Source of the DNA: Mobula birostris | Taxonomy: Eukaryota | Reading direction: 5' to 3' | Length of the DNA: 64,000 nt | Assembly (NCBI RefSeq): GCF_030028105.1 | Contig: NC_092380.1 | Location: forward strand, 20,857,144 to 20,921,143 | In this document: positions 1 through 64,000 of the stretch, in pieces | Layout of the letters: each line of letters starts with the position of its first letter | How positions within the stretch are numbered: the first letter of the stretch is position 1 | Position numbers and translations under genes: made by a program | Notes under the pieces: model-generated | The model's database searches: none | Told to the model about the DNA's origin: nothing | The model's input: the letters and a program-made list of their open reading frames with translations, nothing else

Positions 1-2377
1 CTTTTTAGAACAGCTTGTTGTTGAGCCCACTAGGGGATCAGCTGTACTGGATTGGGTATTGCGTAATGAACCAGAGGTGATTTAGAGATTGAGGTGAAAG
101 AACCCTTAGGAGGCAGTGATCATAACAGGATTGAGTTTACAGTGAAATCTGAAAAAGAGAAGCCAAAATCCGATGTGCCGATATTTCAGAGGAGTAAAGG
201 AACTTATAGCGGCATGAGAGAGGAACTGGCCAAAGTTGACTGGAAAAGGACACTGGCGGGAAGGACAGCAGAGCAGCAATGGCTGGAGTTTATGCGAGAA
301 GTGAGGAAAGTGCAAGACAGGTATATTCCAAAAAAGAAGAAATTTTCCAATGGAAAAAGGATGCAACCGTGGCTGACAAAAGAAGTCAAAGCCAAAGTTA
401 AAGCAAAGGAGAGGGCATACAAGGAAGCAAAAATTAGTGGGAAGACAGAGGACTGGAAAGTTTTTAAAAGCTTATAAAAGGAAACTAAGAAGGTCATTAA
501 GAGGGAAAACTATGAAGGAAGTTAGCAAATAATATCAAAGAGGATATTAAAAGCTTTTTCAAGTATATAAAGAGTAAAAGACAGGTGAGAGTACATATAG
601 GACCAATAGAAAATGATGCTGGAGAAATTGTAATGGAAGATAAGGAGATGGTGAAGGAACTGAATGAGTATTTTGCATCAGCCTTCACTGAGGAAGACAT
701 CAGCAGTATATCGGACACTCAAGGGTGGCAGGGAAGAGAAGTGTGCGCAATTACAATTATGACAAAGAAAGTATTCAGCAAGCTGAATAGTCTAAAGGTA
801 GATTAATCTCCTGGACTAGATTGAATACACCCTCATGTTCTGAAGGAAGTAGCTGTGGAGATTGTGGAGGAATTAGCAATGATCTTTCAAAAGTCAATAT
901 ATTCTAGCATGGTTCCAGAGGACTGGAAGACTGCAAATGTCACTCTGCTATTTAAGAAGGGGGCAAGGAAGCAAAAAGGAAATTATAGACCTGTTAGCTT
1001 GACATCAGTGATTGGGAAGTTGTTGGAGTCAATTGTCAAGGATGAGGTCACGGAGTACTTGGAGGCATATGACAAGATAGGCAGAACTCAGCATGGTTTC
1101 CTTAAAGGAAAATCCTGCCTGACAAACCTATTACAATTTTTTGAGGAAATTACAAGTAGGCTAGACAAGGGAGATGCAGTGGACATTGTATATTTGGATT
1201 TTCAGAAGGCCTTTGACAAGGTGCCACACGAGGCTACTTAACAAGATAAAAGCCCATGGAATTACGGGAAAGTTACATACGTGGATAGGGCGTTGGCTGA
1301 TTGGCAGGAAACAGAGAGTGGGAATAAAGGGATCCTATTCTGTTTGGCTAACGGTTACCAGTGGTGTTCCACAGGGGTCCGTGTTGGGGACCACTTCTTT
1401 TTACGTTGTACATCAACGATTTAGATCATGGGATAGATGGCTTTGTGACTTAAGTTTGCTGATGATACAAAGGTAGGTGGAGGGGCCAGTAGTGCTGAGG
1501 AAACAGAGAGTCCGCAGAGAGACTTGGATAGATTGGAAGAATGGGCAAAGAAGTGGCAAATGAAATACAATGTTGGAAAGTGTATGGTTATGCACTTTGG
1601 CAGAAAAAATAAACAGGCAGACTGTTATTTAAATGGGGAGAAAATTCAAAGTTCTGAGATGCCACGGGACTTGGGAGTCCTCGTGCAGGATACCCTTAAG
1701 GTTAACCTCCAGATGGTGAAGGCGGCGAATGCAATGTTGGCATTCATTTCTAGAGGAATAGCATATAGGAGCAGGGATGTGATGTTGAGGCTCTATAAGG
1801 CGCTGGTAAGACCTCACTTGGAGCACTGTGGGCAGTTTTGGTCTCCTTATTTAAGAAAGGATGTGCTGACATTGGAGAGGGTACAGAGAAGATTCACTAG
1901 AATGATTCCGGGAATGAGAGGGTTAACATATGAGGAACGTCTGTCCACTGTTGGACTGTATTCCTTGGGGTTTAGAAGAATGAGGGGGGACCTCATAGAA
2001 TCATATCGAATGTTGAACGGCATGGACAGAATGGATGTGGCAAAGTTGTTTCCCATGATGGGGGAGTCTTTTACGAGAGAGCATGACTTAAGGATTGAAG
2101 GGCGCCCATTCAGAACAGAGATGCAAGGAAATTTTTTTAGCCGGGGGTGGTGAATCTATGGAATTTGTTGCCACGGGCAGCAGTGGAGGCCAAGTCATTG
2201 GGTGTATTTAAGGCAGAGATTGATAGGTATTCTTGAGTAGCCAGGGCATCAAAGGTTATGGTGAGAAGGCGGGGGAGTGGGACTAAATGGGAGAATGGAT
2301 CAGTTCATGATAAAATGGCGGAGCAGACTCGATGGGCCGAATGGCCAACTTCTGCTCCTTTGTCTTATGGTCTTATT
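1..2377 (+). mobile_element. CR1-clade LINE, 3' part of ORF2 (endonuclease end, RT, C-terminus) plus 3' tail; frameshifted
   Basis: ORFs 94-477, 855-1241 (NYRPVSLTS, QHGFLKGKSCLTNL, YLDFQKAFDKVPH), SGVPQGSVLG at about 1360, KFADD at about 1450, 1524-2153 (ERVQRRFTRMIPG). Ends in gatgggccgaatggccaacttctgctcctttgtcttatggtcttat. Runs off the left edge. Confidence 0.93.
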
Positions 2378-2529
2378 ACAGAGTACCCCTGTGGCTGTTC
2401 CCCTTAACAATATTTACTTCTGTTTGAGTACTGTTGGTGTGGGGGGACCTACCTGGGCGAAGCAACCGTAGCTGCGCCTCTGACACAGAGTCTGGCGCTG
2501 TGGCTTGGAAGAATAGGGACAGGAAGAGG

Positions 2530-3098
2530 ATGGCAGCAGTGATAGGGTAGTCTATAGTTAGGGGGTCAGACAGGCGATTCTGTGAATGCAGGAAAGAAAC
2601 ATGGATGGTAGTTTGCCTTCCAGGTGCCAGGGTCCGAGATGTTTTTGATTGTGTCCACAATATCCTGAAGTGGGAATATGAACAGCTAGAGTTCATGGTA
2701 CATATTGGTACCAATGACATCGACAGGAAAAGGGAGGAGGTCCTGAAAACAGACTACAGGGAGTTAGGAAAGAAGCTGAGAAGCAGGACCACAAGGATAG
2801 TAATCTTGGGATTACTGCCTGTGCCAGGCAACAGTGAATATAGGAATAGAGTAAGGTGGAGGATAAATGTGTGGTTGAGAGATTGGAGCAGGGGGAAAGG
2901 ATAGGAATAGAGTAAGGTGGAGGATAAATGTGTGGTTGAGAGATTGGAGCAGGGGGCAAGGATTCAGATTTCAGGATCATTGGGAACTCTTGAGGCAGGC
3001 GTGACCTGTAGAATAAGGATGGGTTTCACTTGAATCCATGGGGGACTAATATCCTGGCAGGGAGATTTGCAAAGGCTATAGGGGAAAGTTTGAACTAG
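2530..3098 (+). pseudogene. CR1 ORF1 SGNH/GDSL esterase-like domain, disrupted
   Basis: IG*SIVRG (degenerate GDS block), CLPGARVRDV, HIGTNDI and DGFHLN motifs. Frameshifted by the 61-bp duplication. Confidence 0.8.
2840..2961 (+). repeat. 61-bp tandem duplication (2 copies, 1 mismatch)
   Basis: ataggaatagagtaagg...gcaggggg(a/c)aagg at 2840-2900 and 2901-2961. Confidence 0.95.
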
Positions 3099-3310
3099 AA
3101 TTGCTGTGGGGTGGGAACTGAACTGAAGAGACGGAGGAAGGGGCGGTTCACTCACAAATAAAGAAAGCTTGTAGACAGTGTGAGAGGGAGGATAGGCACG
3201 TGATAGAGAAGGGATGCACTCAGACTGATGGTTTGAGATGTGTCTATTTTAATGCAAGGAGCATCATGAACAAAGCAGATGAGCTGAGAGCATGGATCAG
3301 TACTTGGAGC

Positions 3311-3767
3311 ACATCACACAAACCAATCTTCCATCCGTGGACTCACTTTACACCGCACGCTGTCGGAGCAGTGCCGCCAGGATAGTCAAGGACACGACCC
3401 ACCCAGCCAACACACTTTTCGTCCTTCTTCCCTACAGGAGAAGGTTCAGGAGCTTGAAGACTCGTACGGCTAGATTTGGGAACAGCTTCTTTCCAACTGT
3501 GATAAGACTGCTGAACAGATCCTGGCCTGGATCTGGGCCGTACCCTCCAAATATCTGGACCTGCCTCTCGGTTTTTTTTTACACTACCTTACTTCCCATT
3601 TTTCTATTTTCTATTTATGATGTATAATTTAATTTTTTAATATTTACTAATTTTAACAATTTTTAATATTTAATATTTGTAACCCAGGGAGTGTGAAGCG
3701 CAGAATCAAATATCGCTGTGATGATTGTACGTCCTAGTACCAATTGTTTGGCGACAATAAAGTATAA
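3311..3767 (+). mobile_element. Rex1/Babar-like LINE 3' fragment inserted in the CR1 endonuclease
   Basis: IVKDTTHPANTLFVLLPYRRRFRSLKTRTARFGNSFFPTVIRLLN C-terminal motif. 3' UTR ends in aataaagtataa. The CR1 frame resumes with TETW. Confidence 0.8.
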
Positions 3768-5042
3768 ACAGAGACTTGGATGGCTCAGGGGCAGGAATGA
3801 CTACTTACAGTGCCAGGCTTTAAGAGGTTTCAGAAAGGACCAGGAGGGGGGCAGAAGAGGTGGGGGCAAGGCACTGCTGATCAAAGGTAGTGTCACAGCT
3901 GCAGAAAAGGAGAAAGTCAAGGAGTGATTGTCTATTGAGTCTCTGTGGGTGGAAGTTAGAAACAGGAAAGAGTCAATAACTCCACTGGGTGTTTTTTATA
4001 GTCCACCCAATAGTAACAGGAACATTGAGGAGCAGATAGGGAGACAGATTCTGGAACAGTGCAATAATAACAGAGTTGTCATGATAGGAGATTTTAATTT
4101 CCCCAATATTGATTGGCATCACCCTAGAGCAAGGGGTTTAGATGTGGTGGAGTTTGTTAGGTGTGTTCAGGAAGGTTTCCTGACACAATATGTAGATAAG
4201 CCTACAAGAGGAGAGGCTGTATTTGATGTGGTATTGGGAAATGAACCTGGTCAGGTGTCAGTTCTCTCACTGGGAGAGCAATTTCAAGATAGTGATCACA
4301 ATTCTATCTCCTTTACCATAGCATTGGAGAGGGATAGGAACAGACAAGTTAGGAAAGTGTTTAAATGGAGTAAAGGGAAATATGAAGCCGTCAGTCAGGA
4401 ACTTGGAAGGATAAATTGAGAGCATATGTTCTCAGGGAAATGTACGGCAGAAATGTGGCAAATCTTTGGGGATATTTACATTGCATTCTACATAGGTCTA
4501 GAATAGGGGGCTCTGAATAGAAGTAGTACCTTTGATGTCCGGCATGCTGCTCCCTACCAGACAGGGTGGAAGGGCATCACTGGTCCTCATCCATCTCCTA
4601 AATCTCTCACGTGTCGGCTCCAAGTGCCATACCCCGGTAAACTGCTTCAGCTGGCGGGCTAAACCAAGTGAGGGGGTGGTGTTAACATGGCACCACTGGG
4701 CGAATGACTTCCATGATGAAGTCACCAGCCAGGACGGAAAGTTTCTCAGATGAACTATAATGGCCACGTGTTCACCACCAAGGTGAGCCACCTAGTTGGA
4801 GGAAATTGGCTGTGGTCAAACCTGGAGAGGGATGGGCTCCGCCAGGTTTCAGATGCCCAAGACACGCCACATGATAAGCACACCAAAAAGCAACTTCATA
4901 CCGGATCGTCTCAGCCCGGGGTACCAATGACCACGCTACCCATCTCACACCAGGGCGGACACGATAACTGTGCTACTGGTGATTCGACACAGAAGATCCG
5001 TGGCAGAGAGAACATCACAATTGCCACATGGAATGTAAGAAT

Positions 5043-5394
5043 GAGAAAATCGACGGCAACAGCTCACCTGAAGACTCAACTCACTCTCTCTCTCCATCGA
5101 TATTCAACTAAATACCACGAACTGAACTTTATTCAACATCATAAGACTGTATCTTTTCACCCCTAGACTTAAAGAAGCTTGGTTTTTCATTCACATATAT
5201 TTTCAAACTGACTGATTTACTTACACACACACACACACACACACATAAAATTATTGCTAACCTGTTTGATTTATCTTCACTTAGTTTACTGTATTGTGTA
5301 GTTACTAATAAATACTATTAGTTTATAACAATACTAGACTCCAAAGTGTTTCCATCTCTGCTGGTTCTTTTTTCTCGTCACGGGGTACATGACA
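5043..5394 (+). repeat. 5' LTR of the Gmr1-like element (5'-truncated; contains a (CA)n run at about 5223-5245)
   Basis: Aligns to 10690-10802 plus 15146-15367 and ends ...gggtacatgaca. Confidence 0.9.
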
Positions 5395-5398
5395 AAAT

Positions 5399-5416
5399 TG
5401 GGGGCTCGTCCGGGAT
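5399..5416 (+). promoter_or_regulatory. Primer-binding site, tRNA-Pro
   Basis: TGGGGGCTCGTCCGGGAT, a perfect match to the 18-nt tRNA-Pro PBS, 4 nt after the LTR end. Confidence 0.95.
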
Positions 5417-5497
5417 ATGAACAAATTGGTCAGGAGGCTGGCTTGAATTGATTGGGGAAAAATTCTTGTGATTTGGTAGTGTGGAAATACAGCAGAA

Positions 5498-6600
5498 ATG
5501 GATGTTAGTGTTGAGGAGTTTATGTTGGAACCAACCCCAGAGGCGTTGGAGGATGCTAAGAAGGATTTGCTGTTCGGTATTGCTCAAAAGTTAAAACTAA
5601 AGGTGAACACTAAAATGAGGAAAATTCAGATACAGATGTTAATAGCCCGGCATTATGCAGCTAAGGGAACGTTTGAGGTGGGGGCGATGGAGCTATTTGC
5701 GGAAGGTAAGGTACATGCTGAGGATGAAGCTCAGTTGAAACTGAAATTGGAAATATTAAGAATGGAGCATGAAATGAAATTAAAACAGCTCAAGAGAAGG
5801 GGCAGAGAAACAGAGAAAAAAGGCACAGAGACAGAGAGAGTTTGAAAGGAAGATGTGGCACCATAACACTCATGTGGCGAACCGTGATGAGGGGTTTAGT
5901 GTCAGTCGAGAAATTAGGTTAGTGCCTCCATTTGATGAAGCAGAAATTGATGGGTATTTCCTACATTTTGAGAAAGTGGCCCGTAATCGGGAGTGGCCGC
6001 GGTGGCAGTGGGCAGTGTTATTACAGAGTGTGGTTAAGGGGAAGGCTTAGCAAGCACATGCAGACCCGTCTCTTGAAGACTCAAGGGACTATGCTAAAGT
6101 GAAGGATGCTGTGTTTAAGGCTTATGAGTTAGTCCCAGAGGCGTACAAAGGTTTCGAGATTTGAGAAAGTCCTGGAACCAAACGTGTGTGGAGTTTGCCC
6201 ATGAGAAATGGGTATACTTTGATCAGTGGTGTGCTTCAAAAGAGGCAAATGAGAATATTGGCAACTTGAAGGAGTTGATATTGATTAAGAGTTTAAAAAC
6301 TGCGTCTCGGCTGAGCTAAGGACGCACTTAAATGGAAAAGGGGCAGCGACACTGTCGGAGTCTGCTAAGTTAGCAGACGAATATGCCCTAACTCATAAAG
6401 TTAAGTTTTTCCCCCTACTAAGAATAACCCACAAGGGAGTAGAGATAATCCACCGGCTAAACCGGAGAGTAACCGGGGATTAGTGATAAAAGTAAGGAGG
6501 AAGGGAAACAGTCGGGGGGAGAATTTCCTATTTTTAAGTGTTACTCTTATGGAAAACCTGGCCATGTGGCGTCAAATTGTTTTGCTATGAAAAGGGGAAA
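5498..6600 (+). pseudogene. Gmr1-type gag with SCAN-like capsid region and degenerate zinc knuckle
   Basis: LVPPFDEAEIDGYFLHFEKVA...WAVLLQSVVKGKA, then VKDAVFKAYELVPEAY and FKCYSYGKPGHVASNC. Several stops and frameshifts. Confidence 0.8.
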
Positions 6601-7459
6601 AGGAAAAGAGAAAGAGAAAACCCCTACTGCCTACGTTCAGACGGCTAAAATACCGCTGAAGGAGGAGGGGTTGAAACGAATTCAGGAGGGACTCGAGAGA
6701 TTTATTTCAGAAGGGTTTATGTCTGTGAAGGAGGGGTCAAACCCAGTCCCAGTAAGAATCTGGACAGATACTGGAGCTTTCCAGTCGCTGATATTAAAGA
6801 ATGTTTTGGAATTTGGTGCGGAGACTGGAGAAGTAAACATTATTAAGGGCATTGGAAAGGGAACAGAGGCCGTGCCTTTGCATAAGGTAATCTTGAAATG
6901 CGATTTGGTATTGAAACCAGTCATAATAGGGGTCTGACCTGAACTACCGACAGACCATGTTGATGTCTTACTCGGTAATGACCTTGCAGGTAGGGATGAT
7001 TACACAGCAGTTCAGCTCACAAGTAAGCCTGCTGCTGCTGCTGAGGACCCGCCCAGAGATGCTGATGTGTATCCCGCATGCGCAGTGACATGAAGCACGT
7101 CCAGAAAGGCTGCTGCTGCTAACATTGATTTATCTGAGACATTCCTACCGTCCCTATACCAACAGGACTTAGGGGGTAGTAAGGCTGAGGAGAGCAAGGA
7201 AGAGAGGAAAGACCTGTCCTTATCAAGGAAGGAGTTTACAGAAGAGCAGAATAAAGATCTGGAAATTGGGGCTTTAAAAGAGACAGCTCTCTCTGAGGAG
7301 GAAATTCAGAAAGAAACAGTGGGGTATTATCTTAAAGATGGGGTGTTGATGAGGAAGTGGAGACCAGCCACTGTGCCTGCGAGTGAGGATTGGGCTGTTG
7401 TGCACCAGGTGGTGGTTCCAAAGGTTTATAGGGTTGAAATTTAAAACCTGGCCCATAAG

Positions 7460-9466
7460 ATGTCTTTAGGGGGACATTTTAGAGTAAAAAAGACAGTGCA
7501 CAGGATCATGAGGGAGTTTTATTGGCCTAACGTGAGGAGAGATATTGTCAATTACTGTAGAGGGTGTCATACATGTCAGGCGGTGGGAAAACCTAACCAG
7601 GCCATTCCAAAAGCACCACTTTGGCCAATACCTGCTTTTGGTGAACCTTTTTCCAGGGTCATAGTGGATTGTGTAGGCCCTTTGCCAAAGACTGCAGCTG
7701 GTCATAAGTATTTGTTAATAATAATGTGCGCTGCATCTAGGTTCCCGGAAGCTGTACCTCTCAGAAACATCCAGGCCAAGACTGTGGTCAAAGCACTCAG
7801 CAAGTTTTTCGCACTGGTAGGTTTACCTAAAGAAATTCAATCTGACCAGGGTAGCAACTTCACTTCAAAAATATTCCAGCAAGTAGTGTCTGAGCTGGGA
7901 GCTCAACAGATTGTGTCATCTGCCTACCACCTGGAGCCTCAAGGGGCTCTGGAGAGGTTTCATTCCACTTTAAAAACCTTGATTAAGACTTACTGCCATG
8001 AGAATGACAAGGATTGGGATGAAGGGATACACTTATTACTTTTTGCTGTGAGGGACACCATTCAAGAGTCCTTCGGGTTCAGCCTGTTTGAGCTCATTTT
8101 CGGCTATAGGCCCAAAGGACCTTTGACCCTGTTCAGGGAGCAATGGTCTAACCCAGAAGTGTGTGTCAGCGTGTTAGACTATGTTTTAAAATTCTGTGTA
8201 AGGCTTAACAAGGCCTGTGACCTCACCAGGAAGAATCTGGAGCACTCCCAAATTAAAACGAAACATTGGTTTGATAAGAGAGCGAAGGAGCAAGTGTTTG
8301 AAGTTGGAAACAAAGTACTGGTGCTGTTCCCTCCTGTGACCAACCCCCTCCAAGCAAAATTCCATGGGCCCTACAGCATAATGAAGAAAATTGATTCTTT
8401 GAATTACGATACTGAAACTCCTGACAGGAGGAAGGCCACGCAGCTGGTGCACGTTAATATGTTGAAACCGTATCATGATTCTGAGGTGGTACCAGTAGGA
8501 TTGACCAAGAAAACAAGGGGGGCTGAGGAATTTGATAATGAGGAAAAAAATCATTTCACCAAACTGAGTATTCTGTCCACGAGACTTACGAATTCCCTTA
8601 TTTTAAAGGACCTTACTAATAAGGTTTGTCATCGGGGGCCTGCACAAAGAGAGCAATTGCAGGAACTAATTAGGAAGCACAAAGATTTATTTCCTGACAC
8701 CCCAAGACGGTGCACTGGGGCAGTGCATGATGTCATTATAAATTCAGCCCAGCCCATTAAACAGCATCCTTACAGAATGAACTTCGAGAAAAATAAAGAA
8801 ATTGAAAAAGAGATCGGGTACATGCGAGCAACCGGTATTATCAGGCCACCTACCTCAGACAGGGCGTCACCATGCGTCCTTGTGCCTAAACCGGACAGTA
8901 GCACGAGATTCTGTACCGACTACTGGCAAATTAATGCCATAACCAAGACGGATGCTTATCCTATCCCCAGAGTGGATGACTGGGTTGATAAAGTGGGAAA
9001 GGGTAAGTACCTCACGAAGATTTATCTGTTGAAGGGATACTGGTGTGTTCCATTGACTGACAGGGCCAGAGAAATTTCAGCGTTTGTTACACCTTCAGGG
9101 CTGTATGAATACAATGTTTTGCCCTTCGGGATGAAAAATGCACCAGGGACATTTCAAAGAATGATCAATTCAGTGATTAGAGGGTTAGAGAACACAGGGT
9201 CTTATATTGATGACCTAGTGGTCTGGAGTGACACATGGGAAGAACATACTGCAGCGGTACAGAAACTGTTTGATAGGCTTTCTAAGGCCAATCTTATGGT
9301 GAACCTTGCTAAAAGTGAATTTGGCCATGCCACAGTCACCTATCTGGGTTATGTGGTGGGCCAAGGCCAACTGGCTCCTGTACAGGCCAAGGTTCAAGCT
9401 ATTGTGGAGGTTCCTGTTCCAACTAGTAAGAAAGCTTTGAGAAGGTTTTTAGGGATGGTTGGGTAG
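7460..9466 (+). pseudogene. pol fragment: integrase (H2C2 zinc finger, DDE core) followed in frame by reverse transcriptase
   Basis: GGHFRVKKT..FYWP..CRGCHTCQ, IVDCVGPLP, IQSDQGSNF, ERFHSTLK, FHGPY. Then QHPYR, LPFGMKNAPGTFQ, YIDDLVV. Premature stop at 9466. Confidence 0.92.
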
Positions 9467-20640: not shown

Positions 20641-20746
20641 AGAAAACCAGGTACTGGCAAAGGGTTGACAAACTTTTTCTTGCAACCCCACTAATTGCTA
20701 CGGAAGAAGAAGCAGGTCATTTGGGGTGATGGCCAGTGCTTTAGAG

Positions 20747-52698: not shown

Positions 52699-52706
52699 AA
52701 AGGGCC

Positions 52707-52739
52707 CTGACGAAGGGTCTCGGCCTGAAACGTCGACTG
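52707..52739 (+). ncRNA. Minimal hammerhead ribozyme core (right arm of the hairpin)
   Basis: CTGACGA-AGG(GTCTCGG)CCT-GAAAC-GTC-GACTG. The 5' strand of stem I is mostly lost at the hairpin loop. Confidence 0.65.
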
Positions 52740-53301: not shown

Positions 53302-54752
53302 AGTTGTTACAAGAGAGTTTTCAATTTGTGCAGGAAAACATTATTTCCTTGAACTCTGAACTTAAAGAGACGAAGTGTCAGATAGCGGCTATTTCAGCCC
53401 GCTTGGGAAAAGTCTCAACATAGGATTATCAATTTGGAAGCAAGATCTCGTTGGAATAATATTCGAATTGTTGGACTGAAGGAAGGATCTGAGAGTGGGG
53501 ATTTATTGGACTATTTTGCTAACTTGTTTCAATCTCTGTTTCTGGATATTTTACCTCAACCTCCCGATATTGCAAGAGCACACAGAATTTTCTCTTTGAA
53601 ATCTCAGGATCCGAATAAACCAAGGGCAATTTTGGTCTGCTTTCTTCGTTTCAAAGTTAAAGACCAAATCATGAAATATGCAAGGAAACACAAAGTTTTT
53701 AAATTCAAGGGTTCCAAGATTCATTTTATGAAGATTATCCATGGGAAGTTATGGACCTGTGGTCTAAATTCGCTCCAACCAAGAAGATAGCCCATGATAA
53801 GGGATTATTCCCATCACTTTGCTATCCAGCCCGATTAAAACTATTTCCCAAAGGTTCCACTCCACGTGTTTTTCTGGACCCCAAAGTGGCATTGGACTAT
53901 GTTAACTCTATTTCGGTTGCAGCCAAGGTTTGAATGGTTTTAGGTCTGCTGAATAATTGTTTCAGAAAGAAAACAAGCTTTGAAGATTTCTGATTTACTT
54001 AAGATGTCCTTTGATTGATGGACCATTTAAAGAAGATGTGAACTTTTTGATGTAACTGATGAATGACTTTTCCAAAATCTGTTTGGTTTACTGAGTGAAT
54101 TAACACAGCGGACAGATTGTTAACCGGTTTATTTGTTTCTATCCTCCTTTTTGTTTCATTAATTGATAAGTTTTCATAGTTCATAAGGATTTTTTCTTAT
54201 ATATACATAGTTGGGAGTGCTTAGTAGATAGATATTTAGGTTTTTTTCTAAAAATAGTTTTTCATTGGGTGTGTAAGTTAAATGGAAAATGGCGCTGATT
54301 TTTCTTCGTTAGAGATTACATAGGCATTCTTCTTTGTTTAATTTTATTGTTTTGGCATTTTTGGAGATTGTTTCTGCATTCCCCAGCTTATTTTTAAGGA
54401 TTAAGTATAAACATTTTTTTTCCTCTGCAGGGCTTTCCTATTTTAGGGCCGTGAGTTTTTTTTTGTAACTGGGGGGAGGAATTAAGGAAAGCTTTTAAAA
54501 TCACCATTATAAAATGGGTAGCTCGCGGAGTCTGTCTCTCTTTTTTTCACTTCTATGGGGAGGGATTTCGGCTTTTTTTAACCAAATTTCGGGCTTTCCG
54601 GGGTGGTGAGAGGACTGGGGTTAGTTTTGCGTTATAAGATCAATTGTAGGATTGATTTTAGTTTTCTTTATTGTATTTTTTTCCAATTATGAAGTTCCGG
54701 ACCATGCGTGTTTTGTACATGGTTATACTTATCACCGCCAGTTTTGATTAAC
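53302..54752 (+). mobile_element. L1-clade fragment 'E': ORF1 C-terminal half plus downstream T-rich region
   Basis: LEARSRWNNIRIVGLKEG, IARAHRI, PRAILVCFLRF, FPSLCYPARLK. Joined directly to the broken end of L1 D. Confidence 0.8.
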
Positions 54753-57700
54753 CCATAGAACCATAGAAACTACAGCACAGAAACAGGCCTTTTGGCCCTT
54801 CTTGGCTGTGCCGCACCATTTTCTGCCTAGTCCCACTGACCTGCACATGGACCATATCCCTCCATACACCTCCCATCCATGTATCTGTCCAATTTATTCT
54901 TAAATGTTAAAAAAGAACCCTCATTTACCACCTCGTCTGGCAGCTCATTCCATACTCCCACCACTCTCTGTGTGAAGAAGCTCCCTTTAAACTTTCCCCC
55001 CTCACCCTTATCCCATGTCCTCTGGTTTTTTTTCTCCCCTTGCCTCAGTGGAAAAAGCCTGCTTGCATTCACTCTATCTATACCCATCATAATTTTATAC
55101 ACCTCCATCAAATCTTCCCTCATTCTTCTACGCTCCAGGGAATAAAGTCCTAACCTATTCAACCTTTTTCTGTAACTGAGTTTCTCAAGTCCCGGCAACA
55201 TCCTTGTAAACCTTCTCTGCACTCTTTCAACCTTATTTATATCCTTCCTGTAATTTGGTGACCAAAACTGAACACAATACTCCAGATTTGGCCTCACCTA
55301 TGCCTTATACAACCTCATCATAACATTCCAGCTCTTATACTCAATACTTTGATTAATAAAGGCCAAGGTACCAAAAGCTCTCTTCATGACCCTATCTACC
55401 TGTGACGCCACTTTTAGGGAATTTTGTATCTGTATTCCCAGATCCCTCTGTTCCACTGCACTCCTCAGTGCCTTACCATTAACTCTGTATGTTCTACCTT
55501 GGTTTGTCCTTCCAATGTGCAATACCTCACACTTACCTGTATTAAACTCCATCTGCCATTTTTCAGCCCATTTTTCCAGCTGGTCCAAGTCCCTCTGCAG
55601 GCTCTGAAAACCTTCCTCACTGGCTACTACACCTCCAATCTTTGTATCATCAGCAAATTTGCTGATCCAATTTACCACATTATCATCCAGATCATTGATA
55701 TAAATGACAAATAACAATGGACCCAGCACTGATCCCTGTGGCACACCACTAGTCACAGGCCTCCACTCGGAGAAGCAATTCTCTACTACCACTCTTTGGC
55801 TTCTTCCATTGAGCCAATGTCTAATCCAATTTACCACCTCTCCATGTATACCTAGCGACTGAATTTTCCTAACTAACCTCCCATGCGGGACCTTGTCAAA
55901 GGCCTTACTGAAGTCCATGTAGACAATATCCACTGCCTTCCCTTCATCCACTTTCCTGGTAACCTCTTCGAAAATCTCCAATAGATTGGTCAAACATGAC
56001 CTACCACGCACAAAGCCATGTTGACTCTCCCTAATAAGTTCCTGTCTATCCAAATGCTTGTAGATTCCGTCTCTTAGTACTCCCTCCAATAACTTACCTA
56101 GTACCGACGTTAAACTTACTGGCCTATAATTTCCCGGATTACTTTTCAATCCTTTTTTAAACAACGGAACAACATGAGCCACTCTCCAATCCTCTGGCAC
56201 CTCACCTGTAGACAGCAACATTTTAAATATTTCTGCCAGGGCCCCTGCAATTTCAACACTAGTCTCCTTCAAGGTCCGAGGGAACACCCTGTCAGGTCCT
56301 GGGGATTTATCCACTTTAATTTTCCTCAAGACAGCAAGGACCTCCTCCTTTTTGATCTGTACAGTTTCCATGATCTCACTACTTGTTTCCCTTAATTCCA
56401 TAGACTTCATGCCAGTTTCCTTAGTAAATACAGACGCAAAAAAACTATTTAAGATCTCCCCCATTTCCTTTGGTTCCGCACACAGCCGGCCACTCTGATC
56501 TTCAAGAGGACCAATTTTATCCCTTACAATCCTTTTGCTCTTAATATACCTGTAAAAGCTCTTTGGATTATCCTTCACTTTGACTGCCAAGGCAACCTCA
56601 TGTCTTCTTTTAGCCCTCCTGATTTCTTTCTTAAGCATTTTCTTGCACTTCTTATACTCCTCAAGCACCTTATTTACTCCCTGCTTCCTATACATGTCAT
56701 ACAACTCCCTCTTCTTCTTTATCAGAGTTGCAATATCCCTTGAGAACCAAGGTTTCTTATTCCTATTCACTTTGCCTTTAATCCTGACAGGAACATACAA
56801 ATTCTGCACTCTCAAAATTTCTCCTTTGAAGGCTTCCCACCTATCGATCACCTCCTTGCCAGAGAACAACCTGTCCCAATCTACGCTTTTTAGTTCCTTT
56901 CTCATTTCTTCAAATTTGGCCTTCTTCCAGTTAAGAACCTCAACCCTAGGACCAGATCTATCCTTGTCCATGGTCAAGTTGAAACTAATGGTGTTATGAT
57001 CACTGGAACCAAAGTGCTCCCCTACACAGACTTCTGTCACTTGTCCTAACTCGTTTCCTAACAGGAGATCCAATATTGCATCCCCTCTAGTTGGTCCCTC
57101 TATATATTGATTTAGAAAACTTTCCTGAACACATTTTACAAACTCTAAACCATCTAGACCCCTAACAGTATGGGAGTCCCAATCAATATATGGAAAATTA
57201 AACTCGCCTACCACCACAACTTTATGTTTCCTGCAGTTGCCTGCTACCTCTCTGCAGATTTGCTCTTCCAATTCTCATTGACTATTGGGTGGTCTGTAAT
57301 ACAATCTCCCTAATGTGGCCATACCTTTCCTGTTTCTCAGCTCCACCCATAAGGACTCAGTAGACAAGCCCTCTAATCTGTCCTGCCTGAGCACTGCTGT
57401 GATATTTTCCCTAACAAGCAATGCTACTCCCCCACCTTTCATTCCTCTGCCTCGATCACATCTGAAACATCAGAACCCTGGAATATTAAGCTGCCAGTCC
57501 TGCCCCTCCTGTAGCCAAGTTTCACTAGTTGCTATAACGTCATAATTCCACGTGTCAATCCACGCCCTCAACTCGTCTGCCTTCCCCGCAATACTCCTAG
57601 CATTGAAATATATACACATCAGAAGATTTTTACCACCACTCACAACCTTTCTTTTAGCGAATTTGCTTGAACTTTTAACATCATTTATTTTCACCCCAGC

Positions 57701-57799
57701 CACACTGTCAGCTCTGGCACTCTGGTTCCCATCCCCCTGCAAATCTAGTTTAAAGCCTCCTCAATAGCACTAACAAACCTCCCTGAAAGGATATTGGTG
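54753..57799 (-). mobile_element. CR1-clade LINE, 5'-truncated, near-complete ORF2; the only large minus-strand element
   Basis: ORFs 57470-57742, 55298-57271 (657 aa; QHGFVRGRSCLTNL, KFADDTK) and 54827-55297. Tail repeat (ttctatgg)n at about 54753-54770. Confidence 0.95.
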
Positions 57800-57859
57800 C
57801 TGGTATGCGTGTATTCATGTGTTAAATAAAATAAAGTGTTTAATGGTAGATAAACAGAT

Positions 57860-57945
57860 AAACCAATACCCAGCTAAATTAAGGCTTTTTGCCAAAAATT
57901 CTGGGGTTCGTATTTTTGAGAACCCAGCTGAAACATTGCGTTTTA
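57860..57945 (+). mobile_element. Short L1 ORF1 C-terminal fragment (family of element F)
   Basis: caatacccagctaaattaaggctttttgccaaaaattctggggttcgtatt...cccagctgaaacattg matches 59346-59430. Confidence 0.7.
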
Positions 57946-59531
57946 AAGATTAAAAGATTGACAAGATTAAAGAAATTGATAAAAAATATTCCATTGCTCC
58001 TAGTAAGGAGTTTTATAAACAGAGAGTCGAACTTCAAATGGAACATAGCTTATTACTAACATCCTTGATTGAAAATCAACTAACAAAAACCAGAAGTGAG
58101 TTTTATATACATAGAGATAAATTGGGTAAATTATTAGCTAATCAATTGAAAACTGCTTCGGTTAAATGTCAAATTCTTAAGATTCGTAAAAATTATGATA
58201 CCTTGACAGTTGATCATGATGAGATAAACAAATCTTTTCAAGAATTTTATACCTCTTTATATTACTCAAAGTTTCCCTCATGATCCCAACATAATGCATG
58301 ACTTTTTATGGAAATTGAACTTTCCAAAATTATCACCCGAAGAATGTTTAACATTAGAAACTCCTATTACGGATGAAGAAATAAAGGGTGTTATTTCCTC
58401 AATGAACGCTGGCAAAGCACCTGGTCCAAATGGCTATACAGTAGAGTTCTTTAAGTTTTTTTCTTCTATTCTTTCTCCTTGATTGTGTAGAGTTTTTAAA
58501 GCAGCAATTAGAATAGGTAAATTACCACAACCATTTTATGGAGCTTCTATTTCTCTAATTCTTAAAAAAAAATAAAGGACTCCGCTTTCCCCCTGTGGAC
58601 ATGTAAGACACAGTTTCTTTCTGTCCGCCTTAATTTCTCCCTTTCCTGACTCAAACTTTGAAATTTTAACTTTATTCAGTTGGATCCTGTAGAGCGACAA
58701 TTATAATTACGTCCAACACAAGAAGCACCAAAAGAAATCCTGAACGGTAAGCTTAAAAAAGCTGACGAGACTTCAGAGCAGCCACCTGGATAAATAGATT
58801 AGAGTCTCAAATCAGCTATATCGTTCCTGAATTAACTCAACTAAAAGAAAGATTTCTCCCTTTAAAGGAAAAAAATTGACTCTTTGACCCTTGATCTTAA
58901 AGAGGTGAGTCGAAATACGGCTGATATTTCTTCTTGTCTGGAAAAGGCTCAACAATGGATCGTGGATTTGGAGGCTCGCTCTTGTCGGAACAATATTCGA
59001 ACTGTTGGATTAAAAGAGGAATCCGCCGACGCACTGGACCATTTTGCTAAGATGTTTCAATCTTTATTTCCGGAGGCTTGCCTACAACTGCCTGAGATTG
59101 AAATGGCTCATAGAGCAGGTGCTTCAAAATCCTCAGATCAAGGTAAAAACAGGCACGTCGTTGTGCGCTTTCTTCGTTTTAGAGACAAAGACTATTATTA
59201 AGCTTGCAAGAAAACAAAGGTGGTTCAAATTTCAAAGCTCTGAGATTTGTTTTTCGAAGATTTTCCACGTGAAATTGTTCAGAAACGTTCTGGATTTGTT
59301 GTCGTAATGGGTACGGCTTATCAAAGACAGTTTCATCCATCTCTTCAATACCCAGCTAAATTACGGTTTTTCGTCAAAAATTCTGGGGATCGTATATTTA
59401 TGGACCCAGCTGAAGCATTGTGTTTTATTAATTCTTTTCCTGACGAGTCTGAAGTCTGAAGTTTAAATCATTTACAATTGTTTGATTGTCTCCCGACTTA
59501 AGGAGCAATGAGGTCGGAAGATTTGATGGGT

Positions 59532-59786
59532 TGTAGTCGCGCTGATACGCTATGAGTAAAAAGAAGACACTAACTCGAGCAGGGTTGGGTTGAACCGTTT
59601 ACTGTTTCAATCGGTGTGCGCTTAAGTACCTGCTCCCAGCAACCTCCACTCTCTGCGGGGCAGAAGCAACGTCGGCCCCCGGGCCGAGGTCCGCCCCGCA
59701 CTCTGATTCCTCTCGGTTGCCGCTGGCTGCGGGTTCGCTGGCGACTGCTGGAACCGTTTCGCTTGCTACGTGGGCGAGCCACCACA
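59532..59786 (-). repeat. Solo LTR of the 47790-51888 Gypsy family
   Basis: Reverse complement aligns with 47790-48028 and 51652-51888. TG...CA ends. Near-TSD GGGT / GGAT. Confidence 0.9.
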
Positions 59787-59946
59787 GGATATAGAAAGTC
59801 TTTGCCTTAAAATGTACTTTTATCTCTGAAATAGACTGGTTTGGATGGTTTTAACTTCAGAAGACATAACGCGGGAACTGTCGGAAGACTATAGATGCCT
59901 TTGAACCATCTAGAATTTCTTCCTGTTTGCAGCATTTGAATGAACT

Positions 59947-60721
59947 AGAAACCAAGGACCTTCGGTGGAGAGACCTGTTGGTTTGTGCGGCTGCTCGCCA
60001 GCTTGAAGCCTGTTCGGGAGATCTTTTTGGAGTCGGGGAGGTGAGGTCACTGGCTGGGCTTCTGGTGACAGGCGAAATATCATTTGCAGAAGCTTACCAG
60101 CGATTGGAAGAGCATGCACAACACTTTCCTGTGTGCTGGAGACCAACGACGCTTCATCCAGTCTGTCATCAGAAGACGGGGAGTGTGGGGAAGAAGGCAG
60201 AGTGCAGGGCTCAGTACTCACATATCCAATCGTTATATCGCTCCCGGCGGAAAGATGCGGCCCAAAACGGTCATCTCGGGGGCCTGGAAATCTGCTCATC
60301 TCCAAGAGTGAGCACATCCGCCGGGGACCTTTGACTTTTGCTCAGGGATCCTTTCAGCTGAGGGAGTCCCCGACCCTTGGCCAGTTCGGGAGGTCTGTCC
60401 CGAGAATTGGGACCTGCTACGTCCCATTGAACCATCTGAGGTATCCTCAGTTATCCGGAGTATGTCGGGGGCGGCGGCAGATCCTGACAGGATTGGAGTT
60501 CAACAGCTTCGCCAGACCGACCCCTCATTCTGGGCGGCTTACTACAACCTTCTATCGGTCATAGGGGAACTTCCCTCCCCCTTTAAACGTTCCAGAATAA
60601 CCTTGGTACCGAAGCATACTGGTGACCTGTCCTCACTGTCAAATTATCGCCCAGGTAACATCTCCTCTATTGTCATCAGGGTGTTTCATCGCATCCTTGC
60701 TTCCAGATGGTCGACAGTATT
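59947..60721 (+). mobile_element. R2-like fragment, copy 2
   Basis: Colinear with 15372-16149 over its full length (about 90% identity by eye) and carries the same motifs. Confidence 0.78.
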
Positions 60722-63343
60722 GTAAGACGTATTGCTCCGGGAGTTGGCTCCTAATGTTTTTTTTTTCTTTTTCTTTCTCTTGTAGTTAGTGGGTTTTTCT
60801 CATCTTTTAGTTAGTTGGGGTTTTCTTTTTTCCTTATTTTCTTTATAAAAATAATTTTTTTTCATTATCATATATTATTCTTTTTGATAAGTTTTCTTCA
60901 ACTTCATTAACTATATATATCAATTTGTTGAAGTCTTGTATCATTTTATAGCTGCAGAAGATTATGTATCAATAAAAAATTTTTAAAATGAAATGAAAAA
61001 ATAAAGATCCTACTGAATGTGCATCATATAGACAGATATCCCTGCTGAATGTAGATTCTAGGATTTTTTTTCTAAAATATTAGCAACTAGGTTAGAGAAG
61101 GTACTGCCTCAAATTATCTCTGTGGACCAAACTGGGTTTATTAAAAATCATTATTCATCTTTTAATAATAGGAGATTAACGAATATTGTTTATACTCCTT
61201 CACTTAGAACTCCAGAATATGTCATTTCATTAGATGCTGAGAAAGCTTTTGACAGAGTTGAATGGCCATATTTATTTAGTGCGCTTGAGAAATTTAATTT
61301 TAGTCCGATACTTATATCTTGGATTAACTTGATACATCATACCCCTGTAGCTTCGTTTTTTTTTTACTAATAATCAAAGATCTCCCTTTTTTCAGTTATT
61401 TCGGGGTACTAGGCAGGGATGTCCCCTTAGTCCATTATTATTGATATTGCTCTGGAACCTTTAGCAACTGCTATTCGAGATTCACCAAATATTCTTGGTA
61501 TTACCCCTGGGAATGAGATACATAAGTTATCACCATATGCAGATGAATTGTTATTATATATTTCCAATGCTGAGAAATCCATTTCTGCAGTTTTATCCTT
61601 GTTGGCACAGTTTTGTAATTTTTCTGGTAATAAATTAAACCTTAGTAAGAGTGAACTCTTTCCATTAAATATGCAGGTTCCAATTTATGGACGTTTACCA
61701 TTTAGATTGGTTACCGACTATTTTACTTATTTAGGGGTTAAAATTACTAAAAAGCGCAAGGATACATTTAAGGCTAATTTTTTACCTTTAATTGATCAGA
61801 TTAAACATCTGTTCACTAAACGATCACCAATGTCTTTGTCATTGAGATCAGTGCTAGCAAGATGACTATTTTACCTAAATTCTTATATTTATTTCAAGCG
61901 GTACCAATTTTTATTCCAAAATCCACTTTTGATAACGTTGATTCTAAAATGTCTTCAAATATATCGCAGAATGAAATTCCTAGGTTAGGTAAAAGATATT
62001 TACAGAAGTCTAAAAAGGAGGGTGGTCTGGCATTGCTGAACTTTAGATTTTACTATTGGGCAATTAATATCTGATATTTAAAATTTTGGACATGGGACTT
62101 GGACATAATTTCAAGTCTACATTGGGTAAATCTTGAATGTAAATCTGTACAAGGGTTTTCACTGGGTTCTATTTTATGGACCTCGCTTCCCTTTGCTCTT
62201 TCTAAATTGCATAAACAAATGGATAATCCAATAGTTAAATATACCTTACGAATATGGTTTCAATTTCGAATTTTTTTTGGGTTGAATCAATTTATTCTAG
62301 CAAGCCCTATTATATATAATTGTTTTTTCAACCCTCTATTATGGATCAAGTCTATTTGGTTTGGAGAACCAAAGGTATATTACGATTTTGTGATCTATTT
62401 TTGGATAATTGTTTCATGTTCTTTGAATAATTATCTAATAAATATAATTTGCCTAGATCCCATTTCTTTAGATATTTACAGATTTAAAACTTTTTAAATA
62501 CTGTTCTTCCTACCTTTCCGAGTCTATATCCAACGGATATTTTGGAAATAATTTTAGATTTAAATCCTTTTCAGAAAGGTGTAATAGGAACTATTTATAA
62601 TATAATTATGAAAATACATCCAGACTTATCTAATAAAATCAAGAATGATTGGGAAAGGGAACTTAAGCTTACTTTACCTATTGAAAAATGGGAAAAGTTC
62701 TTCAATTAGTTAATTCTTCCTCTATATGTGCTAAACATGCACAGATACAGTTTAAAGTAGTACATAGGGCCCCTATGTCTAAAGATAAACTAGCTCATTA
62801 TTACTCTCATATAAATCCTGTATGTGACAGATGTCACTCTGAGATAGCTTCTTTAACTCATATGTTTTGGTCATGTCCTTGTTTGAAAAAATATTGGAAA
62901 GATACCTTTGATATTATTTCCTGTTCTGAATATTGATTTACAATCTCACCCTATTACTGCAATTTTTGGTTTACCAATGATAGAACCAAATCATTTAACC
63001 TCTTCAGCTCCTCGGATGATTGCATTTCTTACTTTAATGGCTAGAAGATCCATTTTGCTGAACCGGAAAGAGATTAATCTTCCCACTACATTTCACTGGT
63101 TCTCTCAAACTATGTTGTGTTTAAATTTAGAAAAAATTAAAAGTGTCATTTATGATCCTTCTATTAAATTCCAAAAGACTTAGAGACCATTTATTCAACA
63201 CTTCCATATGATGTAATTTGACCTTTTCCAAATCTATTCTACTACTTTCAAATATATGGAGAGAGAAGCAGAGTTAATGACACTAATGGTCCTATTTGAC
63301 GTAACACAACAGCCTATGTCTTTTTCTTTTCTTTAGTTTAGAG

Positions 63344-63873
63344 GGTGTGGAGGAAGATGGACGGGCTAGTGTCACGCTTCATCCCCACCAGCTGTGTAAC
63401 AGAGGACTCTCTGATCTACGGGCTGTTCCCAGGGACACACACGGAGACCAACATCCGGTGCTGCTGGCAGATCATCAACTCAGTGAAAGATTGCTCTTTG
63501 GTTGGCCCGAAACTTGATGATCTTCCAGCACGTAGAGATGTCCGTGGCAGAATGTTGCCCACTGGCACATTCTCGGCTGCAGGAGTACGTGCTGACAGAC
63601 GTGCTGAAACTTGGTGCAGCTACCGCAAGGGCCCAGTGGGGAAGGACCACAGTTAAGGCTTCTTCTCCCACGGGACTAGGAGTGGTCGGGTGGTGGGGAG
63701 TGTACTCCTCATCACTGGTGTGTAAAGATGAAACAACAGAGTGCCACGTGAGTGGCTAAAAGTACGGAATTGTATAGAATATAATGGAAAGGTCTGTAAA
63801 GGATTGAGAGTCATTGAATGGTTAATTGTATATAATTTTATTTTTAAATAAAGTATATTTGAAATTTTAAAAA
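63344..63873 (+). mobile_element. Tx1-like LINE ORF2 C-terminus and 3' UTR
   Basis: VWRKMDGLVSRFIP..LIYGLFPGTHTETNIRCCWQIINSVKD.LWLARNL. Ends in aataaagtatatttg plus an A-rich stretch. Confidence 0.7.
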
Positions 63874-64000
63874 GTTGATTAGTATTGTGCAAAGACAGCG
63901 GTGAAGAGGATGGCAGCAGACACCAGCGCATCGGCTCGAGGTACGGGAATCAAGAACACTGTCAGGCTGACAGTGCGAGACCGGAACGGGGGCACCGGCT
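63874..64000 (+). mobile_element. Possible 5' end / ORF1 start of a further Tx1-like element (runs off the window)
   Basis: Abrupt GC rise after the preceding tail. ATG at 63910 opens MAADTSASARGTGIKNTVRLTVRDRNGGTG with no stop before the edge. Confidence 0.4.

Follow-up and report, generated by a model that had tools for sequence, protein, structure and literature searches.

Why should a 64,000-nucleotide stretch of the Mobula birostris genome, referred to as the window, consist almost entirely of transposable elements (TEs) that nearly all point in the same direction? The first-pass annotation had suggested a flamenco-like, uni-strand piRNA cluster. Matches to transposon proteins or, as DNA, to other stretches covered 94.5% of the window, as expected from the near-total TE origin claimed there, and the 8 gaps of at least 150 bp in this coverage were all located inside or adjoining TE remains. 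The strong plus-strand bias was also confirmed, with 27 TE segments on the plus strand and 2 on the minus strand in a tblastn pipeline (binomial p=1.6e-6; 42.2 kb and 3.0 kb in summed length), plus a solo LTR on the minus strand, although segments are not equal to insertions as nested elements split their hosts. The ratio obtained with an earlier library was 33:2. Furthermore, the 148 stop-free plus-strand frames of at least 75 amino acids contained many Pfam matches to RT, integrase, RNase H, endonuclease and L1-ORF1 domains, and the sole match among 99 minus-strand frames was a CR1 element at 55301-57274. The elements identified in the window were as follows.

1-4495, plus strand: two CR1 remains, the second interrupted by a 3' piece (about 3306-3768) that we take to be Rex-like (RVT_1, Exo_endo_phos_2 and OSK/GDSL matches; DNA matches)
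4720-15367, plus strand: 5' piece of an RTE element, followed by Gypsy-1 and Gypsy-2 (Pfam, DNA matches)
15372-16149, plus strand: R2-like RT fragment, with a 92% identical twin at 59947-60721
16150-20031, plus strand: RTE, CR1, RTE and CR1 fragments (Pfam, tblastn)
20044-21230, plus strand: putative degraded retroviral-like pol relic (labelled by eye)
21231-21518, plus strand: N-terminal zinc finger of a hAT-like transposase (zf-C2H2_12 E 4e-5, zf-BED E 0.016, under the cut-offs)
21613-29578, plus strand: part of an L1 ORF1, together with a long L1 copy (Pfam)
27564-28600, minus strand: Penelope, wrong-way element 1 (GIY-YIG E 0.017; inverted ends)
30114-33283, plus strand: C-terminal piece, presumably of a hAT, an L1 endonuclease piece and a Tigger-like element (31639-33283) (Pfam, DNA matches)
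33280-42805, plus strand: L1 interrupted by Gypsy-3 (37161-41349; LTR pair 90% identical) (Pfam)
43117-53302, plus strand: L1 copies that contain Gypsy-4 (47790-51897) and, at 52600-52802, a 203-bp hairpin insert (Pfam)
53297-59531, plus strand: L1 5' part, overlapping the duplicated segment 51558-59947
54754-57798, minus strand: young CR1, wrong-way element 2 (Pfam; 93-95% identical to other copies)
59532-59789, minus strand: Gypsy-4-type solo LTR, wrong-way element 3 (DNA matches)
59947-63339, plus strand: R2-like twin and L1 3' part (Pfam)
63340-64000, plus strand: a Keno copy represented by its 3' end, followed by the 5' start of another copy that extends 3 kb beyond the window

The 3 minus-strand elements, 4.3 kb together, were located where the first-pass annotation had placed them, but its family labels held only in part. 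The CR1, RTE, L1 and Gypsy (4 copies) labels were supported by Pfam, the Keno-type Tx1 label was also supported by the tools, and the top PDB matches of the R2-like label were R2 proteins (E 2e-6), whereas the matches for the hAT at 21231, the Tigger at 31891 and the GIY-YIG domain of Penelope were weak and under the Pfam cut-offs. The ERV-like relic at 20044-21230 had no Pfam or PDB match, and its name, like those of the second hAT and the Rex 3' piece, is our presumption, assigned by eye. In Gypsy-1, the integrase precedes the RT, and Gypsy-2 (about 10780-15146) contains a pol frame of 1234 amino acids. We infer that Gypsy-2 is nested within the right LTR region of Gypsy-1, because LTR matches connect 5043-5128 with 10690-10779 and 5142-5394 with 15146-15367. 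The 2 R2-like pieces, which have common ends and 92% identity, may represent a single event. It was also noted that positions 51558-59947 are duplicated immediately to the right of the window, 3-10 kb past its end, with 90-95% identity. The wrong-way CR1 and the solo LTR are missing from the duplicated segment, in which the CR1 site is empty, and by this comparison 2 of the 3 wrong-way elements in the window post-date the duplication.

The window represents the middle of a 156-kb arm, here called the right arm (C13:20,797,146-20,953,698), with 46 TE segments on the plus strand and 11 on the minus strand. Each arm starts at a locus-specific non-coding sequence, here called the head, and in the 96 kb adjoining the right head the ratio was 28:2. 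A left mirror arm of 195 kb (C13:20,315,877-20,511,000) contained 7 plus-strand and 63 minus-strand segments. The arms are separated by a tandem array of U2 snRNA genes on the minus strand (about 20.534-20.797 Mb, about 260 kb), located 60 kb to the left of the window, of which the part at 20.544-20.657 Mb is known from probe and search matches only. The bias stops at the heads, with ratios of 10:12 and 6:10 in the first 50 kb outside them. Relative to the inward strand, the antisense to sense ratios in both arms were 29:0 for L1/Tx1, 14:1 for Gypsy, 10:0 for RTE and 28:7 for CR1; the 9 antisense and 5 sense segments of Tigger and hAT are small counts and less clean than those of the LINEs and LTR elements. 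In a first pass with Pfam over frames outside the seed set, all 4 TE-domain matches in the left arm (3 elements; 128 frames) were on the minus strand, and all 4 in the right arm (75 frames) on the plus strand. In the 352 kb of the arms, 74 segments belonged to families other than CR1, Rex and Penelope, versus 29 in 600 kb of controls, a contrast that is inflated because the seed library was taken mostly from the arms.

A whole-arm inverted duplication or an assembly artefact was rejected as the origin of the mirror structure, as the arm interiors resemble each other only through membership of the same TE families; the sequence common to both arms is confined to the heads and to a stretch of about 15 kb next to the array. 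A 506-amino acid frame in the left arm, considered as a captured gene, was rejected since it resembles the endonuclease region of LINEs. The flanking genes face inward (TIMM8-like on the plus strand, Ras-like and glycogen synthase on the minus strand), and each is separated from its arm by about 50 kb of unbiased sequence. The WBP2-like label of an exon at C13:20.2447 Mb was not confirmed.

Is such a bias common elsewhere in the genome, as the first-pass annotation had considered? None of 12 control stretches was significantly biased: neither any of 8 control windows of 50 kb (65:72 in total, smallest p 0.057), nor the two 100-kb stretches around a relic of the head on C4, nor the two 100-kb flanks of a U1 array (smallest p for the C4 and U1 sets 0.053). 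The U1 flanks contained neither a pile-up nor a bias, and the idea that flanks of this kind are general to snRNA arrays was rejected on this ground. However, vertebrate introns have an antisense TE bias in the same direction relative to the transcript as the arms. In 8 host gene stretches, intronic TEs were antisense by 39:19 (67%), and in the introns of the two nearest genes by 13:3 and 6:0, that is, 19:3 (86%). Thus, orientation alone is weaker evidence than the 50:50 null put forward in the first-pass annotation implies. The bias near the heads, 61:4, exceeded that of the introns (Fisher p=1.7e-4); the antisense share was 94% up to 100 kb from the heads and 67% in the 8 gene stretches. The family mix differs as well, with the TEs of the sampled introns limited to CR1, Rex, Penelope and one RTE. 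Furthermore, the bias was strongest near the heads and weakest adjoining the array, with 4 of 65 segments in the wrong direction within 100 kb of the heads and 14 of 62 farther away (Mann-Whitney p=0.003). A rise of sense insertions with distance is described for uni-strand clusters (PMC10643416, Fig. 8).

The heads, each of which carries a motif pair that we take to be TATA and YY1-like, are located as follows.

C13:20,946,690-20,954,670: right head, with the motif pair at 20,953,698 on the minus strand, 32.5 kb right of the window
C13:20,314,903-20,333,135: left head, whose motif pair is at 20,315,877 on the plus strand

Both pairs point inward, antisense to the arm transposons, and are 638 kb apart. 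The pattern had exactly 2 matches in the 4.01-Gb genome and none in the reversed control, which measures specificity rather than the odds of discovery, because the pattern was set after inspection of the sequence. Identity between the two heads is 98-100% across about 3.2 kb and 92-94% and 81-87% in the shoulders, and head probes of 1.5 kb and 0.75 kb had 99-100% matches at the mirror site only. The heads carry a CpG-rich peak, and a donor-like GT is located about 355 nt downstream of the predicted start. The minus-strand promoter that the first-pass annotation had expected to the right of the window thus has a counterpart in a promoter-like element, located where the bias ends. The head is a candidate RNA polymerase II promoter with predicted germ-line activity. 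Other identities were rejected: a structured RNA (no Rfam match above threshold in the heads), a coding gene (the long frames are not protein-like by eye), a dispersed TE or LTR (outside this locus, one old relic on C4 only) and a decayed U2 unit (only short matches to common repeats). No enrichment of A-MYB motifs was seen in the heads. No RNA source was listed for window positions 15200-25100, and contigs from 6 of the 7 runs listed, apparently of other species, matched the head and this part of the window over short common repeats and left the unique part of the head bare, which speaks neither for nor against expression.

The ratio of A>G to T>C substitutions on the inward strand was 1.9 (1.33-2.49) in the window and 1.97 in the right arm; in the left arm it was 1.18 (0.83-1.62), which is not significant, and 0.96 in the distal part. 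In the calibration set, host introns had a ratio of 1.36 (1.12-1.69) on the gene strand and the controls 0.93 (0.84-1.04), although one calibration gene was opposite, at 0.76. This pattern supports transcription of the minus strand of the window in the germ line; the asymmetry, if transcriptional, implies germ-line expression. Replication is able to skew substitutions and could also be the source of the strand asymmetry. The bin with most of the left head was asymmetric in the wrong direction (33:59), and the flip predicted for wrong-way elements was absent (0.95 and 0.75 in TE sense), with few changes near the promoter. Part of the L1 asymmetry may be intrinsic, because L1 copies outside the arms already had a ratio of 0.75 (0.55-1.1). 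No clear C>T/G>A asymmetry was seen. In teleosts, the direction of the asymmetry is opposite (PMC2927911).

We consider it probable, at roughly 0.65 and from sequence evidence, that the mirror arms flanking the U2 array are two convergent uni-strand piRNA clusters. The head would act as a germ-line RNA polymerase II promoter, from which a transcript of 100-190 kb would run to the array in antisense to the elements of the arm and be processed into piRNAs. Insertions landing antisense would be retained for the extra silencing guides that they provide, and those in sense orientation close to the promoter would be lost because they terminate the transcript early. The pair may have arisen via an old inverted duplication of the head and the array-side end, after which each arm would have accumulated its own insertions, and gene conversion or a recent partial duplication would have made the promoter copies alike again. 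The elephant shark has genes of the PIWI pathway (PMC7618676). More tentatively, the locus may be a palindromic piRNA super-locus, in which gene conversion keeps two copies of one dedicated promoter nearly identical although they are 638 kb apart, and both fire inward through independently filled traps on either side of the U2 array, yielding antisense guides against Keno, which disrupts U2 genes, and against most other TE classes of this genome.

Intact copies of Keno sit within the U2 array, and the Keno sequence at 63340-64000 is 85-88% identical to Keno copies at the array and lies on the strand opposite to those inside it. The ORF2 protein of Keno contains an APE endonuclease (Exo_endo_phos E 5e-14) and an RT domain (RVT_1 E 2e-38). 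In all interrupted array copies listed, the 3' flank begins at U2 nucleotide 38, an A that is merged with the tail, and about 14-15 bp are duplicated at the full-length array copies. Antisense Keno copies are present in both arms, which would therefore guard the U2 array too, but the persistence of intact Keno in the array means that any silencing is incomplete. The available text on Keno in U2 arrays (PMC4640811) likewise gives an APE-type endonuclease with RT and a 3' flank from U2 nucleotide 38/39; it reports Keno from frogs, fish, lancelet and hydra, and flanking antisense copies are not described in it.

A less likely explanation is that the heads drive long non-coding transcripts unrelated to piRNAs, from which truncating sense insertions are purged, with long elements accumulating under low recombination near the array. 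This would account equally for the head, the wrong-way gradient and the asymmetry, and the intron TE bias has the same direction. However, the bias near the heads exceeds that of the introns, which have a different family mix, the U1-array flanks have neither pile-up nor bias, and no other product is evident, with no Rfam match above threshold in the heads.

It is improbable that insertion mechanics produced the pattern, whether by forks converging on the array, same-direction nesting or loss of inverted copies, with no transcript involved. The mirror symmetry around a tandem array fits a replication effect, the elements are heavily nested, and replication might contribute the substitution skew. 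Against this, the bias ends at the heads without fading, is lowest beside the array, where an array-centred cause would make it highest, is absent at the U1 array, and involves both LINEs and LTR elements, with small and less clean counts of 9:5 for Tigger and hAT. In human cells, moreover, the bias of L1 insertions linked to replication forks is modest.

It is very improbable that an unrecognised minus-strand protein-coding gene spans the window with one giant intron. The antisense bias of the local introns would fit, and the scan covered frames of at least 62 amino acids, so short or non-coding exons could escape; however, no host-gene domains were found in the 207 unmasked arm frames of this size, and for a gene spanning the array the left-arm TEs would be in sense orientation. 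As for the intron that the first-pass annotation had considered, the nearest minus-strand gene is complete, with its last coding exon 87 kb to the right of the window, and so does not include it. Just as improbable is transcription outward from the array, sense to the TEs: U2 genes are strongly transcribed and point leftward, the sense of the left-arm TEs, but by the calibration within this genome the right-arm asymmetry indicates the minus strand. Read-through from the genes on either side, which point inward as in read-through clusters (PMC11615739), shares this low standing given the roughly 50 kb of unbiased sequence between each gene and its arm, and for both routes the bias peaks near the heads.

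No piRNA cluster in a shark or ray, or flanking a U2 array, was found in the open-access literature, as far as its text was available (most subscription papers lie outside it). If the reading as convergent piRNA clusters is true, flamenco-scale multi-class traps exist in cartilaginous fish, and a target-specific retrotransposon is linked to a defence locus adjoining its target. The locus offers a base-precise candidate promoter in 2 copies, each with an independently filled trap of 150-190 kb, as a natural replicate for the trap model.

Among known systems, the mammalian pre-pachytene piC-DoG clusters (PMC11615739) and the mosquito read-through clusters (10.1101/2022.08.22.504762) resemble the arms in their dense antisense fragments from TEs of mixed classes, which follow inward-pointing genes. 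They use the promoter of the upstream gene, whereas the arms have a dedicated head and a gap of about 50 kb of unbiased sequence; the continuity with the last exon of the upstream gene that characterises piC-DoG is absent on both sides. Mammalian bidirectional pachytene pairs (PMC11615739) are likewise uni-strand units on opposite strands, but diverge from a central promoter, whereas the arms converge from 2 predicted copies 638 kb apart. The flamenco and flam-like clusters (PMC4120762, PMC10643416) share with the arms a length of more than 100 kb, a high TE density in one orientation, a promoter at one end (predicted in the arms) and tolerance of sense insertions toward the 3' end; the first exon of flamenco is about 430 nt, comparable to the distance of about 355 nt from the predicted start to the donor-like GT in the heads. 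The flamenco promoter is of Inr-DPE type and needs Ci, whereas the heads have a predicted TATA plus YY1-like pair, and flamenco-type expression is found in somatic follicle cells. Thus, the flamenco-like label of the first-pass annotation stands for the one-direction, TE-dense layout but not in the strict Drosophila sense, because the flam-like bias there concerns Gypsy only (PMC10643416) and here involves LINEs and LTR elements, with DNA transposons more weakly so and L1/Tx1 dominating the window. Unlike flamenco, the arms form a mirror pair with a common head.

Repeats made up 94.5% of the window, which occupies C13:20,857,144-20,921,143 in an assembly of 4.01 Gb. Among all 247 stop-free frames of at least 75 amino acids, Pfam TE domains were found all along the plus strand, while those on the minus strand came from a single CR1 element. 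With natural frames as seeds, a tblastn pipeline identified 27 plus and 2 minus TE segments (p = 1.6e-6), or 27:3 with the addition of a minus-strand solo LTR, which encodes no protein. The first-pass annotation was thereby borne out in its claims of a strong plus-strand bias and of only three minus-strand elements, which sum to the same 4.3 kb. Its family labels held in part: the tools recovered CR1, RTE, L1, Gypsy, R2-like and Keno (a U2-targeting retrotransposon of the Tx1 group) and gave weak matches for one hAT, Tigger and Penelope, and the ERV-like relic, second hAT and Rex are putative. In Gypsy-1 (window 7445-9895), the integrase precedes the RT and RNase H, which we take to be the order of the Gmr1 clade. 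The minus-strand CR1 and solo LTR were absent from a 90-95% identical duplicate of 51,558-59,947 at w67,003-73,691 (w, window coordinates continued past 64,000), and both are therefore younger than the duplication.

The window belongs to a TE-packed domain of 156 kb, the right arm, which contained 46 plus and 11 minus segments. A mirror domain of 195 kb across a U2 snRNA gene array, the left arm, contained 7 plus and 63 minus segments. Pfam TE hits in frames then outside the seed set followed the orientation of the arm in 4 of 4 cases on each side. The idea that the arms are copies of each other was rejected, what the two have in common being confined to their outer ends and to about 15 kb next to the array. 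Once CR1, Rex and Penelope were set aside, the remaining families contributed 74 segments in the arms (352 kb) versus 29 in controls elsewhere in the assembly (600 kb), a contrast that is inflated because the library was mostly arm-derived. Further arm families, each antisense to the predicted transcript, were located in the fetched stretches L038, L040 and L077:

L038:7233-8266, plus strand, Harbinger-like element
L040:5282-5455, plus strand, element that we take to be Tc1-like
L077:756-1211, minus strand, DUF4939 gag-like frame

The outer edge of each arm is formed by a head, a non-coding block of diverged modules that are 65-87% alike:

w89.5-97.5 kb, right head, inverted relative to the left head
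C13:20,314.9-20,333.1 kb (C13, the contig of the window), left head, inverted relative to the right head

Head probes of 1.5 and 0.75 kb gave 99-100% matches at the mirror site only, and beyond it matched one old relic on contig C4 and one at w121.5 kb. In a CpG-rich patch, the outermost module contains TATAAAAG and then GCCGCCATCTT, a pair that we take to be a TATA box plus a YY1 site, spaced as at a start site. Homology among the modules starts at GCCGCCATCTT, and most copies have a donor-like GT about 355 nt downstream. The motif pair, a pattern set after viewing the sequence, had exactly 2 matches in the genome, at C13:20,953,698 (minus strand, w96,555) and 20,315,877 (plus strand), both facing into an arm and antisense to its TEs. 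The predicted promoter at w96,555 is in line with the earlier suggestion to look for a minus-strand promoter to the right of the window. At the start of most modules, about 20 nt separate the YY1-like motif from its reverse complement (L004:2500-2530, minus strand, and the module copies), and a presumably X-box-like motif lies upstream of the TATA motif. The two head copies were 98-100% identical across about 3.2 kb, with shoulders of 92-94% and 81-87%, and this stepped profile suggests gene conversion between them.

Extension of the window showed that the bias stops at the heads, the first 50 kb beyond them being unbiased (10:12 and 6:10). The contrast between inside and outside was p = 4e-6 for the left arm and only p = 0.02 for the right, because the whole 167 kb outside the right head is itself 43:28, which probably stems from introns of minus-strand genes in that stretch. 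Segments in the wrong orientation for their arm represented 4 of the 65 located within 100 kb of the heads versus 14 of the 62 farther away (Mann-Whitney p = 0.003), and the legend to Fig. 8 in PMC10643416 gives the same gradient for uni-strand clusters. A similar bias was not common among the control stretches sampled: eight 50-kb controls at hand-chosen round coordinates on six chromosomes totaled 65:72, none being significant. The 100-kb flanks of the C4 head relic gave 23:23 and 13:16, and for those of a U1 array on contig C6 the counts were 18:15 and 13:26; the second ratio (p = 0.053) runs counter to what is seen at the U2 array. The unit of this U1 snRNA tandem array (C6:197,431,091-197,651,578) measures 16.35 kb, and one end of the array carries an inverted pair.

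The first-pass annotation had also considered that the window might be an intron of a minus-strand gene. The nearest such gene encodes a circularly permutated Ras protein 1-like protein, with shark and ray proteins as best homologs, and its exons extend from w204,179 to the last coding exon at w151,115, so that the window is not one of its introns. That last exon matched a stingray protein at 100% identity over 30 amino acids and a bamboo shark protein at 79%, and the genome is therefore most likely that of a ray. It is followed by glycogen synthase, also on the minus strand, and a TIMM8-like frame is located at 20.267 Mb on the plus strand. No host domains were found among 207 unmasked frames of at least 62 amino acids in the arms. 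TEs in eight gene stretches (six adaptin genes and two local genes) were 39 antisense and 19 sense, with ratios of 13:3 and 6:0 in the two local genes. The first 100 kb of the arms (61:4) were more biased than the intron average (p = 1.7e-4); by orientation, the window alone was indistinguishable from the local introns. Multi-exon glycogen synthase loci were seen at C13:21.11-21.18 Mb, C13:64.70-64.80 Mb and C27:53.41-53.47 Mb, and many long stop-ridden adaptin matches, likely processed pseudogenes, were spread over many contigs, several of them repeated on C38. An exon-like frame rich in proline and tyrosine at L091:525-1025 (plus strand) may be WBP2-like.

Substitution asymmetry was assessed by counting non-CpG differences, per column, between each repeat copy and the commonest letter among the other copies. 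On the non-template strand, A>G exceeds T>C in mammals and the reverse is reported for teleosts (PMC2927911), and the asymmetry was therefore calibrated inside the assembly. The A>G/T>C ratio was 1.36 in introns (bootstrap 1.12-1.69; single genes 0.76-5.28) and 0.93 in controls (0.84-1.04). On the inward strand, read from head toward array, it was 1.9 in the window (1.33-2.49; 173:89), 1.97 in the right arm up to w89.5 kb with the duplicate left out, 1.23 in the array-side 60 kb of that arm, and 1.18 in the left arm (0.83-1.62), the distal part of which gave 0.96. In TE sense, the values in the right arm, the left arm and outside were 0.50, 0.91 and 1.20 for CR1, and 0.42, 0.83 and 0.75 for L1. 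Wrong-way elements showed no flip of the asymmetry. The inward-strand asymmetry supports germ-line transcription of the minus strand for the window, not for the left arm, with replication as a possible alternative cause.

The U2 array, whose near end lies about 60 kb to the left of the window, covers about 20.534-20.797 Mb in units of 3.27 kb, with its U2 genes in minus orientation. Within the 140 kb of it that were fetched in full, three full-length elements of 5.16 kb, in which both ORF1 and ORF2 are open, break U2 genes. These elements encode an APE endonuclease and RT and carry the U2 3' flank as given for Keno in section 6 of PMC4640811. Keno ORF1 (L021:4318-5754, minus strand) contains ZCCHC3-type RNA-binding domains plus zinc knuckles. 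All five units at the right edge (L032-L034, about 80,500-60,000 bases left of the window) contain the same 5'-truncated 868-bp Keno piece, giving 4.17-kb units with broken U2 genes, apparently a single insertion spread via array homogenization. At the left edge, tandem Keno copies and a U2 3' part form a 16-kb block (C13:20,511,550-20,528,200; L077-L079) that is inverted (plus strand), sense to the predicted left-arm transcript, and may mark the end of that arm. Outside both heads there are relics of U2 and Keno in either orientation (C13:20,967,000-20,982,000, L005-L006; and L095-L097), with an outward-facing head module among them at C13:20,978.7 kb; the array has probably been rearranged or used to be wider. 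Six places on contig C17 have dispersed full-length copies of U2, with scores slightly above those of the array copies.

The observation is confirmed and extends beyond the window, and the earlier interpretation of it is supported in part. We estimate a probability of roughly 65% that the heads drive inward germ-line transcripts processed into antisense piRNAs, with selection shaping the insertions. Each head would be a germ-line Pol II promoter, from which a long transcript would run toward the U2 array and be processed to piRNAs antisense to the trapped families, including Keno; selection would retain antisense insertions and purge those in sense orientation near the promoter. The rival reading, a long non-coding transcript with no piRNA output, would account for the same data, though only in part for how strong the bias is and for the mix of families, and we consider it unlikely. 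Orientation set by insertion mechanics fits worse and seems improbable. A hidden host gene and outward or read-through transcription also fit worse, and both are very improbable.

In the literature searched, no piRNA cluster was described for sharks or rays, nor any next to a U2 array, as far as the consulted sections go; within them, a genome survey of sharks and rays has a single mention of piRNA, concerning tRNAs (10.1101/2025.06.08.657570). The piRNA pathway genes are present in the elephant shark, and in the axolotl most piRNA clusters are uni-strand and the median size is 10 kb (PMC7618676). Read-through clusters run on from an upstream gene, whereas the arms do not, and the arms are not a divergent pachytene pair (both classes as described in PMC11615739). 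The arms are candidate piRNA clusters whose class membership hinges on small RNAs. The earlier label of a flamenco-like uni-strand cluster holds for the likely mode of working, which would be similar to that of flamenco (PMC4120762, PMC10643416), but flam-like loci have a bias confined to Gypsy (PMC10643416), and the bias in the arms extends across families.
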